The notes beneath the pieces are model-generated. The model had not been told where the DNA came from. It did not search any database and saw nothing but the letters and a program-made list of their open reading frames with translations. Of a DNA stretch of 10,385 bases, positions 1,138 through 10,384 are shown piece after piece. This DNA is from Candidatus Zixiibacteriota bacterium (lineage in GTDB: Bacteria; Zixibacteria; MSB-5A5; UBA10806; 4484-95), in assembly GCA_029932605.1 (NCBI GenBank), contig JAOZPT010000070.1:1-10385 (forward strand). The letters run 5' to 3'. Positions within the stretch are counted from its first letter, which is position 1; every line of letters starts with the position of its first letter. The position numbers and the translations under genes are program-made.

Positions 1138-1187
1138 AGCGGGAGACGGGTCTCGAACCCGCGACAAGTCCAGATGGACTGCTCTAC
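1138..1187 (-). pseudogene. Partial tRNA-Gly copy (distal) lacking the 5' 18 nt, anticodon arm replaced
   Basis: Minus strand GTAGAGCA-GTCCATCTGGAC-TTGTCGCGGGTTCGAGACCCGTCTCCCGCT; both flanks are identical to tRNA-Gly at 1770-1842. Confidence 0.9.
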
Positions 1188-1441
1188 ATAATAAAGTCCT
1201 CTTGCCTTAAATCCCTCTTTAAATCGACAGATTCAATACCCTTTAATTCCCTCTCCCGCCTCATCGCCATACACCTCGACTCAAACTCCTCAACATGAAC
1301 CAGACGTAATGGCCTTCTATATTTCGTCGATTTAACTCTACCAGTCTCATGTGCTAATAACCTCTTCTCAAGATTGGATGTCTGACCAATATACAATTTG
1401 CCGTCCTTATCGCTTTTCAATATATATACCCAAAAACCCAT
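1184..1441 (-). CDS. Small GIY-YIG nuclease family protein (UPF0213/YazA-like), copy 2, 85 aa
   Basis: WVYILKS...LYIGQTSNLEKRLLAH...TKYRRP...AMRRERELK with conserved Tyr, Tyr, Gly, Arg, His, Glu. ATG at 1441 preferred because the longer TTG start at 1483 lies in tRNA-derived sequence. Confidence 0.9.
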   Translation of the reverse strand: MGFWVYILKSDKDGKLYIGQTSNLEKRLLAHETGRVKSTKYRRPLRLVHVEEFESRCMAMRRERELKGIESVDLKRDLRQEDFIM

Positions 1442-1453
1442 AAACACTATATA

Positions 1454-1503
1454 AGCGGGAGACGGGTCTCGAACCCGCGACAAGTCCAGATGGACTGCTC
1501 TAC
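1454..1503 (-). pseudogene. Partial tRNA-Gly copy (proximal) lacking the 5' 18 nt, anticodon arm replaced
   Basis: Identical to 1138-1187. Confidence 0.9.
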
Positions 1504-1757
1504 ATAATAAAGTCCTCTTGCCTTAAATCCCTCTTTAAATCGACAGATTCAATACCCTTTAATTCCCTCTCCCGCCTCATCGCCATACACCTCGACTCAA
1601 ACTCCTCAACATGAACCAGACGTAATGGCCTTCTATATTTCGTCGATTTAACTCTACCAGTCTCATGTGCTAATAACCTCTTCTCAAGATTGGATGTCTG
1701 ACCAATATACAATTTGCCGTCCTTATCGCTTTTCAATATATATACCCAAAAACCCAT
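1500..1757 (-). CDS. Small GIY-YIG nuclease family protein, copy 1, 85 aa
   Basis: Identical to 1184-1441; ATG lies 12 nt after the tRNA-Gly discriminator base. Confidence 0.9.
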   Translation of the reverse strand: MGFWVYILKSDKDGKLYIGQTSNLEKRLLAHETGRVKSTKYRRPLRLVHVEEFESRCMAMRRERELKGIESVDLKRDLRQEDFIM

Positions 1758-1769
1758 AAACACTATATA

Positions 1770-1842
1770 AGCGGGAGACGGGTCTCGAACCCGCGACAAG
1801 CAGCTTGGAAGGCTGCTGCTCTACCAACTGAGCTACTCCCGC
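1770..1842 (-). tRNA. glyT: tRNA-Gly, anticodon TCC (CCA not encoded)
   Basis: GCGGGAGTAGCTCAGTTGGTAGAGCAGCAGCCTTCCAAGCTGCTTGTCGCGGGTTCGAGACCCGTCTCCCGCT folds as a cloverleaf: acceptor GCGGGAG/CTCCCGC, anticodon stem GCAGC/GCTGC, loop CTTCCAA, U discriminator. Confidence 0.97.
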
Positions 1843-1854
1843 ATTACGGTTTAC

Positions 1855-1883
1855 ATATTATAGCCAAATCTGTTTTCAGTCAA
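1855..1883 (-). promoter_or_regulatory. Putative sigma70 promoter for tRNA-Gly and the GIY-YIG array
   Basis: TTGACT at 1883-1878; TAATAT at 1860-1855 (17-nt spacer) or overlapping TATAAT at 1862-1857 (15-nt spacer), just upstream of the tRNA 5' end. Confidence 0.6.
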
Positions 1884-1957: not shown

Positions 1958-3307
1958 CTATTTAAACCGGTATAGGTTTTCACTTACGATTTCTATTGAA
2001 AGATTTAATTCTCCTGCGAGCACAAGCGTGGTTAAAAATGATGCGAACTCGCACGCATTGGTAATTCCCATAAAACGCATTATCTCTCTGCCCAATGGAG
2101 GAATAGCCCCTTCGGATGATGATATGACACCAGCTTCAATGTTTGGCATTTCTACACCATATACAATATTACTTTTTTCCCTGTAACAGAATATTCTTTG
2201 AGTCGATGAAACTAACGGAGCATGAGGATTAATTTTTAAGGCTTTATAAACCCCAGAGATTATTTCACCGCCCATACCCGTATGGTGAAACCAGCCCAAT
2301 TTCTCAGTTCCTTTTGCATCCATTGCCACAAAACTAACGAACTTGTCTGCTGGTTTACCGGTAAGCTTTTCTATTTCCGAATCGGGGATTGATAATTTTG
2401 CCATACAATATCTACCGCGTTTGTTGCGTGGTGAAGGTTTCAAATCACCATCATAGCCCTGTGTAATCCCGCTCAGTGTAAATTGAATACCTTCTGAATT
2501 CAACTTTTCATCAATAAGTTTCTTTGCCAGACCCGTTGCCTTGCTTATTGCACCATGACCGCGATAGAGTTTAAAATCAGCCGTGAAATCAACATACAGA
2601 TAAAACCTTCCCATATCCTCAACCGGCAAGATTTCCACGAAACTAACTTCAGCTCCCCATTTTGAAAGTATTTCGTTCATCTTAGAACATATTTCCGGGA
2701 AGAACGACTCGATTATTTTCATGGCTTTGTAACGAGTTGAAGAATCATCAAATATATATCCTAAGTTTCGGCAGGCTCTGGAGGTATCCAATACAGTAAC
2801 CTCGGCACCACCATAACGGTTTATAAAATACCCGCCTCGTGTCACACCGATAGGTCCCAATCCGGTACCATACTGTAGAATGCCGATAAATTCTTTTTCG
2901 ATATCTCCTTTAATATTAAAATTTCCACAATAAGAATAATAATCATCAATACCACCGATATAATTAGCTGTTAATGAATATAACTGTTGAGGCTTGGGTG
3001 AAATAAGTTTGTTTCCACATACCGAGCATGTCATGCATCCATCAAATGCAGCAAGTTGATAATCTATGTTGCATTCCTTACACTGATATTTTATAAGGTA
3101 TGGATTTTCAGGCAATAACAAGTATCTGAATTTCTCGCCGCTAATTTTTTCGAGAAAATTTCTACGCACGGTCGCCGCAACATAGTAATTCCCGGGAGGA
3201 AAAAGACCATATTCATCAGCTAAATGACCTTCTATTTTCCATGGAGGAATATCACCGGCCTGGATAAGTGAAACAAGTTTGTCGATGATTACTTTATCAA
3301 AAGACAT
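1958..3307 (-). CDS. Divergent class I HMG-CoA reductase-fold protein with inserted zinc ribbon; canonical catalytic motifs not conserved
   Basis: Colinear similarity to archaeal HMGR as recalled: AATVRRNFLEKISG, ANYIG, GNFNIKG, VTRGGYFINRYGG, DLKP...RGR, VEMPNIEAG, LVLAGELNL. ATG at 3307 follows GGGGAG (3317-3312), so it is preferred to TTG at 3319. Confidence 0.8.
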   Translation of the reverse strand: MSFDKVIIDKLVSLIQAGDIPPWKIEGHLADEYGLFPPGNYYVAATVRRNFLEKISGEKFRYLLLPENPYLIKYQCKECNIDYQLAAFDGCMTCSVCGNKLISPKPQQLYSLTANYIGGIDDYYSYCGNFNIKGDIEKEFIGILQYGTGLGPIGVTRGGYFINRYGGAEVTVLDTSRACRNLGYIFDDSSTRYKAMKIIESFFPEICSKMNEILSKWGAEVSFVEILPVEDMGRFYLYVDFTADFKLYRGHGAISKATGLAKKLIDEKLNSEGIQFTLSGITQGYDGDLKPSPRNKRGRYCMAKLSIPDSEIEKLTGKPADKFVSFVAMDAKGTEKLGWFHHTGMGGEIISGVYKALKINPHAPLVSSTQRIFCYREKSNIVYGVEMPNIEAGVISSSEGAIPPLGREIMRFMGITNACEFASFLTTLVLAGELNLSIEIVSENLYRFK

Positions 3308-3339
3308 AAAACTCCCCAATAATATCGTAATCTTTAAAA

Positions 3340-7797: not shown

Positions 7798-8415
7798 TTA
7801 ATTCATTATATGTAACCAATCTCTTAAAAGGAACGTTGTCCGACCGATTAACAGCGAGATACGCGCCATCACCGTAAAACCGAATGTCGCTCCGAAAAAT
7901 ATCATCAAAAAGTAAATCCCCAGCTTGGCCGCTCTGCCCAAAAATCCTTCATGCTTTTTTGAAAAATAGAAATATAGAAGGGTTGTGCATAAACCTATTA
8001 AAACTAAAGCAGCGTTAATAGCGTCACCTACCGAGACTAAATTGATAAACGGTGAAATGGTAGCTTTCATCTGGGCTAAAATATACGCCTGCATATTGGC
8101 TGGAATTGAAACACCCGCACCAAAACCGATATACAATGCCAAGGCAGGTCGGGATAACCAGGAGTGTTTTGAGGAAAAGCGAGCAAACATCAACAACCCC
8201 AAAATCACCGGAATAAGAACCAGCCATTCCCTGTGTATAAAAAGCGGATCGATTATCTTTGGCACAACTGTATCCATCCAGGCGATAACTATCAAAAAAC
8301 CAACTGAAATGCCTACCAAAAGATGTTCAGCGAATTTGTAAAACGGATTATCCTTGTATAAAAATGAATATAAAGCCAGTGTCAACAAAGCCGCAACCCA
8401 GACACCTATATCCAT
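7798..8415 (-). CDS. Multi-pass membrane protein of unknown function (last gene of the DUF6754-type cluster)
   Basis: About six hydrophobic helices; YSFLYKDNPFYKFAEHLLVG motif; TGATG overlap with the upstream gene. Confidence 0.8.
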   Translation of the reverse strand: MDIGVWVAALLTLALYSFLYKDNPFYKFAEHLLVGISVGFLIVIAWMDTVVPKIIDPLFIHREWLVLIPVILGLLMFARFSSKHSWLSRPALALYIGFGAGVSIPANMQAYILAQMKATISPFINLVSVGDAINAALVLIGLCTTLLYFYFSKKHEGFLGRAAKLGIYFLMIFFGATFGFTVMARISLLIGRTTFLLRDWLHIMN

Positions 8416-9242
8416 CAGGCTGTTCCCTTCTGTCTTTTCATCATAAAATACCCCAGATTCCCCATTAAAACTAAAATAACGATAAGCATATGGGCAATGC
8501 TCTGTGCACTCATGCCGATAGAGGCATCACCGGTTTTGTCAACAAGCTCTTCGTATTCAGCTGCCCCTTTTAAACCGGGCACCATACCTATTATCTGATT
8601 CTCCTGCAAAAAGGGATAATATGTCGTGGCCATTACCGCCGTGATAGCTGGAACTACAGCCTGGTGATAGCGCGCATTGGCATAGTTTATCCAGTAAGAT
8701 GGCGTGTCATCATCGGAAACTGAGACCACCAGGGCAATATCATTATAATTGTGCACTTTCTGCATAAGCGGTATATCATCAACAGGCAAACCACGATAAT
8801 CTTTGGGATAGACACGGTGAATATTTTCGCCCATACCAAGTATACCTGAGGATATCTCGGGGCGGAATCCCAGAAAAACATAATCCTCACCCTCAACCAG
8901 ACCAAACTCATCACCGTTATCCTTAAAAGCTTTATTACCGATAGCCGCTCCCTCAGCCCTGAAAGCGATACCAATAACTTTATGGCCGCGACTGAAGACA
9001 TGATGTAAAAGCGCCTTGGCCATCGGCGCCATCTCTGGCAACGTCGCCGTGTCATGGTCAAACGAAAAAAGCAAAACCGAGCCAGGGGGCAAGGTCTCGA
9101 TGAAATCGAAAGTCGCTTTCACCTCTTTGGTGATCTTATTGGGCAGTTTGAAATTGAATACCAATGGTATGGCCACCGATAGAAAAACCAATACGAATAT
9201 CAACCGTCTGTCAATCGTTGTTATTCTCTGCTGGAAACTCAT
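8415..9242 (-). CDS. Membrane-anchored alpha/beta protein of unknown function (N- and C-terminal TM helices)
   Basis: Likely start ATG at 9242 (MSFQQRI), 1 nt after the upstream TAG; motifs GEDYVFLGF and GLKGAAEYE. Confidence 0.8.
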   Translation of the reverse strand: MSFQQRITTIDRRLIFVLVFLSVAIPLVFNFKLPNKITKEVKATFDFIETLPPGSVLLFSFDHDTATLPEMAPMAKALLHHVFSRGHKVIGIAFRAEGAAIGNKAFKDNGDEFGLVEGEDYVFLGFRPEISSGILGMGENIHRVYPKDYRGLPVDDIPLMQKVHNYNDIALVVSVSDDDTPSYWINYANARYHQAVVPAITAVMATTYYPFLQENQIIGMVPGLKGAAEYEELVDKTGDASIGMSAQSIAHMLIVILVLMGNLGYFMMKRQKGTA

Positions 9243-9243
9243 A

Positions 9244-9864
9244 CTAACTGCGCCCCAGATATGTCCTTTCAACCCCAAGGATAACCCTTAGCGAGGTGGC
9301 AATCGTGCCAAGACCAACACCGATAAAAATCCCGCGTCGGGCCGTCATGGAAGGTACATTTAATATCCAGTTGGCTACTTTAGTGAAATAGGGTGATATG
9401 AGATCGCCTATGGGAACCCTGCCTATCATCACCAGCAAAGCCGCAAGTAAAAGTAAAAACGCTTCGAAATTCCTGGCTTTAAAACCACGATAAGCAGCAG
9501 AAACAACGAAAAAAGCCAAAAGCGAAAATACGGTAGCCTGCATCGGTGCCTGCATATGGTCAAATATCCAGACAAAAGGCGACCCCTCACCCCTGCCCCA
9601 TATCAGGCCGCTTAAAGCCATTACAAAAACTCCTATTAGCGTTACGATATTATAACCAAAACCAGAATCCCTTCGAGTAACCTTTTCGGCATGATACTTT
9701 ATCATGCCAACCACTCCAACGAGCAGAGTGAATATATATATAGTCTGAGTCCAATCGACCGCTGTCTCATAAGCAGCAATAGAGGCTTTACTGGGTATAA
9801 AAAACTGCACCAGCATAAAAGCACCGAACACAAAACAAATTAAAATCGGAATCTGCCTTCTCAT
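9244..9864 (-). CDS. Multi-pass membrane protein of unknown function
   Basis: About six hydrophobic helices; PMQATVFSLLAFFVVSAAYRGF and SLRVILGVER motifs; starts 1 nt after the upstream TGA. Confidence 0.8.
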   Translation of the reverse strand: MRRQIPILICFVFGAFMLVQFFIPSKASIAAYETAVDWTQTIYIFTLLVGVVGMIKYHAEKVTRRDSGFGYNIVTLIGVFVMALSGLIWGRGEGSPFVWIFDHMQAPMQATVFSLLAFFVVSAAYRGFKARNFEAFLLLLAALLVMIGRVPIGDLISPYFTKVANWILNVPSMTARRGIFIGVGLGTIATSLRVILGVERTYLGRS

Positions 9865-9865
9865 C

Positions 9866-10384
9866 TCAGGTAATCCTCAATAAATTCTGAAACATATCAT
9901 TGCCCATGATTGCAAGTATCACACCGATTATCATCACCAGTATGATAATAACCTTCAAATAATCAGAACCCTTTATACTGCCCAATACCTGTGAATCCTG
10001 CGAAAGATAACCCGAGGCGGCAAAGAGCTCCTCGCCGATAAGAACGTAATCGCAGGCCACTATGAAAAACGACATCTGGATCGATGAGTCGGTGCCGGCG
10101 ATCTGAATGGCGCCGATAGAATTGCCGGTTTCTGCCAAAATCAGCGATTCGGCCTCAAATGTTCCGAAAAAGAGGTTGGTGGCTGGTCTTTGGCGAAGCA
10201 TTATACCATCAACCGCCGCGGCATAACCAAACTGCGAATCGGTCACGAAAAATATGTTATCGGGGTCGAAATTATCCGGATGGCCGGCACGAGTGTAACC
10301 CTCATAAGCAACCTCCTGAGCAACCGCCATCACCACCGGGTCTTTGTTGGGGAAAATAAGCGGCGTATTATACTCAGCAACTTT
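9866..10384 (-). CDS. DUF6754-like protein, 5'-truncated by the window edge
   Basis: Frame stays open to the edge (KVAEYNTPLIFPNKDPVVMAV...); AESLILAETG...GAIQIAGT...FFIVACDYVLIGEELFAASGYLS then a C-terminal TM helix; family recognised from memory. Confidence 0.7.
   Translation of the reverse strand, partial: KVAEYNTPLIFPNKDPVVMAVAQEVAYEGYTRAGHPDNFDPDNIFFVTDSQFGYAAAVDGIMLRQRPATNLFFGTFEAESLILAETGNSIGAIQIAGTDSSIQMSFFIVACDYVLIGEELFAASGYLSQDSQVLGSIKGSDYLKVIIILVMIIGVILAIMGNDMFQNLLRIT

Follow-up and report, generated by a model that had tools for sequence, protein, structure and literature searches.

Behind an intact tRNA-Gly gene stand two tandem units, each pairing a minimal GIY-YIG nuclease gene with a tRNA copy in which a hairpin has taken the place of the anticodon arm. 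That this arrangement is a real and recurring cassette is, in our view, practically certain, and it is probably selfish and mobile. We favor, at a probability of roughly 0.5, reading the array as a likely selfish element: its nuclease would nick single-stranded DNA next to the element's own hairpin, and host recombination with the tRNA gene would then insert and amplify the cassette. Taken separately, the proposal that this hairpin is the substrate recognized by the nuclease has about even odds.

The tRNA-Gly array and its contig

The stretch of DNA analysed (the window) is the entire contig C99, 10 385 bases long, from a metagenome-type assembly of 2.53 Mb in 101 contigs. On its minus strand the intact tRNA-Gly(TCC) (1770-1842) is followed by two letter-identical 316-bp units (1454-1769 and 1138-1453), just as the original prediction had described; the identity is exact at period 316 between 1138-1484 and 1454-1800. 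The leader and nuclease gene of each unit were also as predicted, but the remaining 50 nt, which had been taken for a plain partial tRNA copy, are more elaborate: 8 nt of the D arm come first, then a 12-nt hairpin where the tRNA has its 17-nt anticodon arm, and finally the 30-nt tRNA 3' end (Table 1). The exact match to the tRNA 3' end is limited to 31 nt of this 50-nt element, and the 8-nt D-arm remnant supplies the stop codon of the GIY-YIG ORF.

Table 1. Features of the tRNA-Gly array, in the order in which they are read on the minus strand
Feature	Coordinates	Strand	Remarks
Sigma-70-like promoter upstream of the tRNA	1855..1883	-	Weak (9/12 match; 4 sites vs 2.8 expected by chance); sole candidate able to drive the array
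Intact tRNA-Gly(TCC)	1770..1842	-	No encoded CCA; anticodon arm 1800-1816; same letters throughout as the tRNA at the empty site in relative L005
Leader, unit 1	1758..1769	-	12 nt; no Shine-Dalgarno motif seen by eye
GIY-YIG nuclease ORF, unit 1	1500..1757	-	85 aa, single domain; Y6, Y17, G19, R27, H31, E63; stop in D-arm remnant
D-arm remnant, unit 1	1496..1503	-	8 nt, identical to host tRNA
Hairpin, unit 1	1484..1495	-	12 nt, replaces the anticodon arm
tRNA 3' portion, unit 1	1454..1483	-	Exact copy of variable loop, T arm and 3' acceptor strand
Leader, unit 2	1442..1453	-	12 nt
GIY-YIG ORF, unit 2	1184..1441	-	Identical to unit 1
D-arm remnant and hairpin, unit 2	1168..1187	-	Remnant 1180-1187, hairpin 1168-1179
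tRNA 3' portion, unit 2	1138..1167	-	End of array; beyond it, host DNA and a C5-epimerase-domain gene

Genome-wide, the 12-nt hairpin occurs twice, both times in this array, and a scan for arm swaps at the genome's 40 own tRNAs gave chance-like or contig-end matches apart from the two array copies. By itself the pseudo-copy folds no better than shuffled sequences (z -0.8 to -1.7); the significance of the hairpin lies in its recurrence and not in its stability. Pairing of ORF codons with the acceptor strand of the pseudo-copy (fold z -3.75) was considered as a further structure, and since the exact 7/7 match appears in only 1 of 28 same-layout loci we treat it as chance. The window had been described as free of integrases, transposases and terminal inverted repeats, and it is so within the searches made: integrase and transposase families were absent among the nine other long ORFs scanned, the 25 longest of 82 inverted-repeat pairs included none at the unit ends, and an Rfam scan found nothing beyond the three tRNAs.

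Elsewhere in the window, a 453-aa ORF (1958-3319, minus strand) weakly matches HMG-CoA reductase, scoring 42 bits with an NCBIfam model whose cut-off is 442, and has an N-terminal extension with two CxxC motifs; it has relatives in genomes G008 and G034. Four membrane-protein-like ORFs form a run at 7798-10336 (minus strand), three of them with no Pfam match and one matching DUF6754.

A minimal GIY-YIG protein with conserved catalytic residues

The 85-aa ORF matches the GIY-YIG family PF01541 (E 5e-14), and its predicted structure (mean pLDDT 87.7) is a single domain. Its nearest matches in fold and sequence are the UPF0213 proteins 1zg2 and 1ywl and Slx1 (E 2e-15; Foldseek rank 1), so that the modeled fold places it with the prokaryotic Slx1-like proteins (PMC1564403), whose minimal domain it shares. 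These are predicted to be repair or restriction-linked nucleases, and linkage to tRNA genes is not mentioned in the available passages of that paper (PMC1564403). The closest named protein relative, at 63%, comes from a Zixibacteria genome, and the host therefore probably belongs there too. Among 41 aligned sequences of the 65 homologues found, Y6, Y17, G19 and H31 never vary, and R27 and E63 are almost as constant, E63 being present in at least 90%. The 11 ORFs at tRNA-Gly(TCC) show pN below pS in all 55 pairwise comparisons (medians 0.30 and 0.84), with synonymous sites saturated. The protein is a minimal Slx1/UPF0213-like GIY-YIG protein that retains its catalytic residues under purifying selection, with predicted nuclease activity. 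It is a single domain and carries no DNA-binding module C-terminal to it; its score with the group I intron endonuclease model TIGR01453 is 22 bits against a cut-off of 56; and the defence and phage libraries gave weak partial matches only, with no meaningful match in the defence library.

The cassette family is tied to tRNA genes

Homologous loci were collected by a scan with a 12-sequence alignment, another alignment being too divergent. The cross-phylum set comprises the best 80 of 498 confirmed loci; it includes L054, a probable duplicate of L028 (their flanks look identical while their taxonomic labels differ, and the contig is probably misbinned). The proposal that homologues lie beside tRNA genes held up well: a tRNA is found within 600 nt at 64 of the 80 loci, on the strand of the ORF in 63, and a same-strand tRNA lies within that distance at 27 of the 30 best loci of the same class (the window included) versus none of the 30 best Ssn-type paralogue loci of that class. 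As a further control, 40 of 1781 ordinary ORFs of the window's own genome have such tRNA linkage. A partial copy of the linked tRNA is present in 50 of the best 80 cross-phylum loci and more than one GIY-YIG match in 12. Cassettes carry 24 different tRNA labels, several can sit at different tRNAs inside one genome (for example G066), and 124 of the 151 genomes of the window's class contain a match, neighboring subfamilies included.

The 16 cross-phylum loci that have no called tRNA within 600 nt were inspected by eye; among the matches listed, several have a pseudo-tRNA at a contig end and a few have nothing evident, while at least two abut tmRNA-like 3' ends and at least five are flanked by inverted repeats. 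Six close homologues (L045, L076, L078, L086, L110 and L122) have inverted repeats on both sides of the ORF and are not tied to tRNAs, an IS-like variant; five of the six share one broad part of the tree. The flanks of L085 and L120 resemble tmRNA 3' ends (by eye), with a hairpin inserted in the T-arm-like part, and their proteins pair at a support of 99. Two homologues lie in contigs labelled Hadarchaeota (archaea; L065 and L074), with no tRNA or hairpin evident. At four tRNA-Ser loci (L033, L140, L147 and L149) the tRNA-type cassette adjoins further GIY-YIG matches and larger hairpin blocks are inserted in the T loop of the pseudo-copy, which suggests nesting of different elements.

Viral contigs yielded 18 loci, one of them full-length; plasmids yielded four records and phages two, all below 60% identity. 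The cassette family is rare on plasmids and phages, and no vehicle for transfer between cells was identified.

The anticodon arm is exchanged for a hairpin

The signature of the element, absent from the original prediction, is the exchange of the anticodon arm for a hairpin. Searching 110 loci with 9-nt anchors on either side of the anticodon arm returned 44 pseudo-arms in 31 loci; dropping one unchanged copy leaves 43 precise swaps in 30 loci. A terminal stem of at least three pairs is found in 22 of the 23 distinct arms (shuffle mean 0.73, maximum 5), and both stem sides of the Gly hairpins vary together. Hairpin type tracks the target: at Gly(TCC), Ala(CGC) and Trp the core is short (CC-N4-GG), and at Asp, Ala(GGC), Gln and Glu it is longer (CCCG...CGGG). 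At other loci (by eye, uncounted) the hairpin is instead an insertion in the D loop, the anticodon loop or the T loop. In most rows the pseudo-copy, both before and after the hairpin, shares the variants of the tRNA of its own host; the repeat borders differ from locus to locus, and the ORF stop codon falls inside tRNA-derived sequence in 19 of 89 loci.

A pattern search for the Gly arm swap hit 11 of 251 genomes of the phylum (0 with the reversed control pattern), 10 of them with the cassette ORF within 250 nt; this search is partly circular, since 9 of the 11 genomes were already among the loci behind the pattern design. Fourteen metagenome loci also carry the pattern. Eight have the cassette ORF within 70 nt, two are cut by the contig start and have ORF-like ends, and four are ORF-less relics adjoining an intact tRNA-Gly; two pairs among the 14 resemble one locus seen twice. 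Relics of this kind, a hairpin pseudo-tRNA beside an intact tRNA-Gly(TCC), were noted at L015, L172, L173, L182 and L186, and broken ORFs likewise occur.

Two layouts, arrays and empty sites

The original prediction placed the cassette just 3' of a tRNA gene, with a trailing copy. Among 90 labelled loci this is the layout of 39, as here, but the intact tRNA lies just as often on the other side, downstream of the ORF (51 loci). In every case a host segment that includes the anticodon arm is present twice in direct orientation. The ORF lies between the two copies, one of which has the swapped arm, and the order is intact-ORF-pseudo (as here) or pseudo-ORF-intact. Arrays of two to three units at 92-99% identity occur at tRNA-Gly, tRNA-Met and tRNA-Asp; a same-family genome (L007) has three units at 94-95% upstream of tRNA-Gly, and a single-contig genome (L131) has three at 98-99% at tRNA-Met.

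Relatives with an empty site, which had been put forward as a check, do exist: in the nine other genomes of the family, tRNA-Gly(TCC) is empty in five, occupied in two, cut by a contig end in one and not located in one. The empty tRNA-Gly of L005 is letter-identical to that of the window, with no sequence difference between the occupied and the empty state.

A quick tree was built from 125 rows and 85 columns, L054 and rows covering fewer than 60 profile positions being left out; 64 of its 121 forks are open. In it the window protein falls in a group of 12 rows (SH-aLRT 90, not starred), all at tRNA-Gly(TCC) and including both layouts; the Gly(TCC) cassettes L038 and L040 are placed elsewhere. 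The proteins cluster by target tRNA: target labels need 38 changes on the tree versus a shuffle mean of 69.3 and minimum of 65. Host relatedness contributes to this, and kin share labels. Groups at tRNA-Cys and tRNA-Ser that span phyla suggest transfer, with misbinning possible.

Proposed nicking at the hairpin followed by host recombination

SsnA, a 94-aa single-domain GIY-YIG protein, binds its flanking hairpin as single-stranded DNA and cuts just upstream, an activity that requires Y6, Y17 and E64; its authors (Chenal et al. 2025) compare the architecture to that of an insertion sequence (available passages of PMC11893778). The cassette resembles it in having a single-domain GIY-YIG protein of fewer than 100 aa, a short hairpin flanking the gene and the same active-site spacing (Y6, Y17, E63/64), and differs in that its hairpin forms part of a tRNA copy and is restricted to tRNA loci. 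We favor a single-strand nick at the hairpin because the nearest characterized enzyme of this size acts in this way (in the passages of PMC11893778 used here), and because the intact tRNA stays in cis with no sign of immunity.

By this analogy the cassette likely works as an Ssn-hairpin pair does, yet it lacks the SRM motif of the NTS/SRM hairpins that accompany Ssn genes, which was found at none of 110 cassette loci and nowhere around the window array, versus 18 of 30 Ssn-type paralogue loci as the positive control (the label cd10448 for Ssn is taken from PMC11893778). The cassette protein is 36% identical to the SRM-flanked paralogue of its own genome (contig C14), itself a long outlying branch of the tree; with identity as a proxy, this points to the cassette nuclease and the Ssn-type paralogue being separate groups. 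Given the absence of SRM from all 110 loci, Ssn serves as a precedent by analogy, being a protein type that is only 36% identical. At the paralogue locus (C14:25961-26291, L199) an SRM motif immediately precedes the Ssn-type GIY-YIG gene, and C85 and C93 contribute two further clear copies of the motif; the window's genome contains both kinds of small nuclease-hairpin system.

We propose the following course of events. The ORF would be expressed within the tRNA precursor. Its product would act like an Ssn enzyme and nick single-stranded DNA adjacent to the hairpin of its own element, whenever replication, transcription or the uptake of outside DNA exposes that strand. The nick would start recombination between the pseudo-copy and a real tRNA gene. 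Each layout may be regarded as a host segment X and a hairpin-bearing copy of X flanking the ORF; a single crossover between the donor's hairpin-bearing copy and an empty tRNA gene would produce the present layout if it fell 3' of the arm and the mirror layout if it fell 5' of the arm, either crossover leaving one working tRNA. Unequal crossovers would change the unit number and could produce both arrays and ORF-less hairpin relics. The route between cells might be uptake of chromosomal DNA, which is a guess. Two observations set limits on this proposal: the hairpin sequence differs between target tRNAs, and it is not dispersed as solo copies in the way of Ssn hairpins.

Alternative explanations

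The main rival, which we consider unlikely though stronger than those that follow, is a homing-type element. Here the nuclease would cut in or close to the anticodon arm of the intact tRNA gene, the hairpin swap would immunize the element's own copy, and repair from the occupied allele would spread the cassette. The swap does remove exactly the anticodon arm in the 43 cases above, the proteins do cluster by target tRNA, and occupied and empty alleles occur among relatives (two and five of nine), as they do for Seg/I-TevI-type homing endonucleases. Phage T4 SegB is an apt precedent: in the available passages of PMC2330249 it is a free-standing GIY-YIG enzyme whose gene lies among tRNA genes, is co-transcribed with them and is present or absent among relatives, and which cuts tRNA genes, drives homing and in vitro cuts T4's own tRNA genes. 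Donor immunity is not visible here, however, where an intact target identical to the empty L005 tRNA adjoins the nuclease gene; SegB, for its part, also cuts the tRNA genes of its own phage, which keeps homing the main rival. The cassette protein moreover has no DNA-binding extension such as the NUMOD3 region of SegB, and its score with the group I intron endonuclease model is far below cut-off. SegB itself differs in its C-terminal binding region, in making double-strand breaks near the T arm and in being phage-borne, and the same passages of PMC2330249 do not mention a flanking pseudo-tRNA, a hairpin swap or tandem units.

Less probable still is a domesticated, mostly vertically inherited nuclease gene carried in tRNA transcripts, with the pseudo-copy playing a role at the RNA level (a processing signal or decoy) and unit number changing by passive unequal crossing-over between the 31-nt repeats. 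Tandem repeats behind tRNA genes are known in E. coli, where one to five repeats each end in a copy of the tRNA 3' end (TLR, from the available passages of PMC8144298); the TLR copies share only 18-19 bp and are not described there as having a nuclease gene or a swapped arm. Purifying selection with saturated synonymous sites, pseudo-copies that match their own host's tRNA, and a linked tRNA on the ORF strand in 63 of 64 loci would all suit a resident gene. What such a gene does not readily explain is patchy occupancy inside one family, 24 tRNA labels in both layouts, several cassettes at different tRNAs per genome (as in G066), the ORF-less relics and broken ORFs, and the lack of a meaningful defence-library match. 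Against the favored selfish element nicking at its own hairpin, the host-matched pseudo-copies and saturated synonymous sites also fit long residence with gene conversion and frequent loss.

Duplication of a tRNA 3' end is the usual mark of integrase insertion, and integrase-dependent tRNA islands have a duplicated tRNA segment and leave one intact tRNA. The cassette too duplicates a tRNA segment and keeps one intact tRNA, and it might accordingly be non-autonomous cargo, moved by a recombinase encoded elsewhere that uses the tRNA repeat as its attachment site; we judge this quite improbable. The genome does encode three tyrosine recombinases and two Y1 transposase matches, but all are on other contigs, the sole phage-type integrase adjoins tRNA-Sec on C68, and no large serine recombinase was found in the genome. 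A cognate integrase using the repeat as its att site would have told against the original prediction, and none came to light: the three tyrosine recombinases gave no tblastn hit in 135 loci, and 125 of the 196 long ORFs in the flanks (0.9-2 kb) were scanned and proved to be mostly of housekeeping families, with no integrase, recombinase or transposase family among them. The cassette further differs from integrase islands in having no integrase, a unit of ~300-370 bp, repeat borders that vary by locus, unlike fixed att cores, duplication of either tRNA half, and a swapped anticodon arm, which an integrase leaves unexplained. From insertion sequences it differs in having no transposase family and, among the 25 longest of 82 repeat pairs, no inverted repeats at the unit ends.

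Copy number of the array

The tandem state stands, whereas the claim of exactly two, perfectly identical units is less secure. Another public assembly, L180, also contains the unit-to-unit junction: the tail of one ORF, the pseudo-copy and the beginning of the following ORF match there over 220 nt at 99.1% identity, with two substitutions. In L180 a Mutator-family transposase gene or insertion sequence interrupts the next unit, and its end matches a contig end of the window's genome (C1:1-50). The depth of the unit relative to its flanks in unitigs was 1.9-2.7x in X1, 2.6-3.2x in X2, 1.2x in X3 and 1.3-1.5x in X4, values from low-depth metagenome contigs of which X1 may be the source sample and X1 and X2 come from one study; this spread suggests copy-number variation. 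Runs X5 and X7 have flank contigs but neither a unit contig nor a contig bridging the site, and we do not count them as an empty allele; in X6 and X8 the unit is present with no long flank contig among the matches listed. No RNA dataset containing the array appeared among the matches listed.

Both the count of two and the 100% identity may have been shaped by an assembler crossing one collapsed unitig twice. The original prediction read the perfect identity as a sign of very recent or ongoing copy-number change, but identity alone is no proof of it, because short-read assembly can produce such identity. That the doubling is wholly an artefact of a single unit, which would bear on copy number only and not on the cassette family, is very improbable: the 100% identity, the metagenome-type assembly of 101 contigs and the near-single depth in X3 and X4 would allow it, but the junction occurs in another assembly with substitutions of its own, depth is 2-3x in X1 and X2, and relatives have arrays of non-identical units.

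Novelty and meaning

The cassette is real and widespread and apparently unpublished. A full-text literature search, which covered few subscription papers, found no published description of tRNA-linked minimal GIY-YIG cassettes with arm-swapped pseudo-tRNAs. The term 'tRNA' is absent from the main text of PMC11893778, and in 12 of its 14 supplementary files the matches listed are all unrelated.

Very many genomes have annotated genes for small standalone GIY-YIG proteins with no known role; our profile matches 8683 protein clusters at 50% identity (E up to 1e-10, neighboring subfamilies included). More tentatively than the reading of the array itself, we suggest that the cassettes may be a new class of mobile element, at ~300 bp among the smallest that are autonomous, in which an 85-aa nuclease and a hairpin-tagged pseudo-tRNA would suffice for entry into tRNA genes by way of host recombination, neither integrase nor transposase being needed. 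A new tRNA context of the hairpin would retarget the element, and bacterial phyla may hold thousands of natural nuclease-hairpin pairs. If it is indeed a selfish element that targets tRNA genes, the cassette would account for a widespread class of pseudo-tRNAs and tandem repeats and would represent an integrase-free route of insertion at tRNA genes. It would also offer many short nuclease-substrate pairs, each cassette locus indicating its own candidate substrate.
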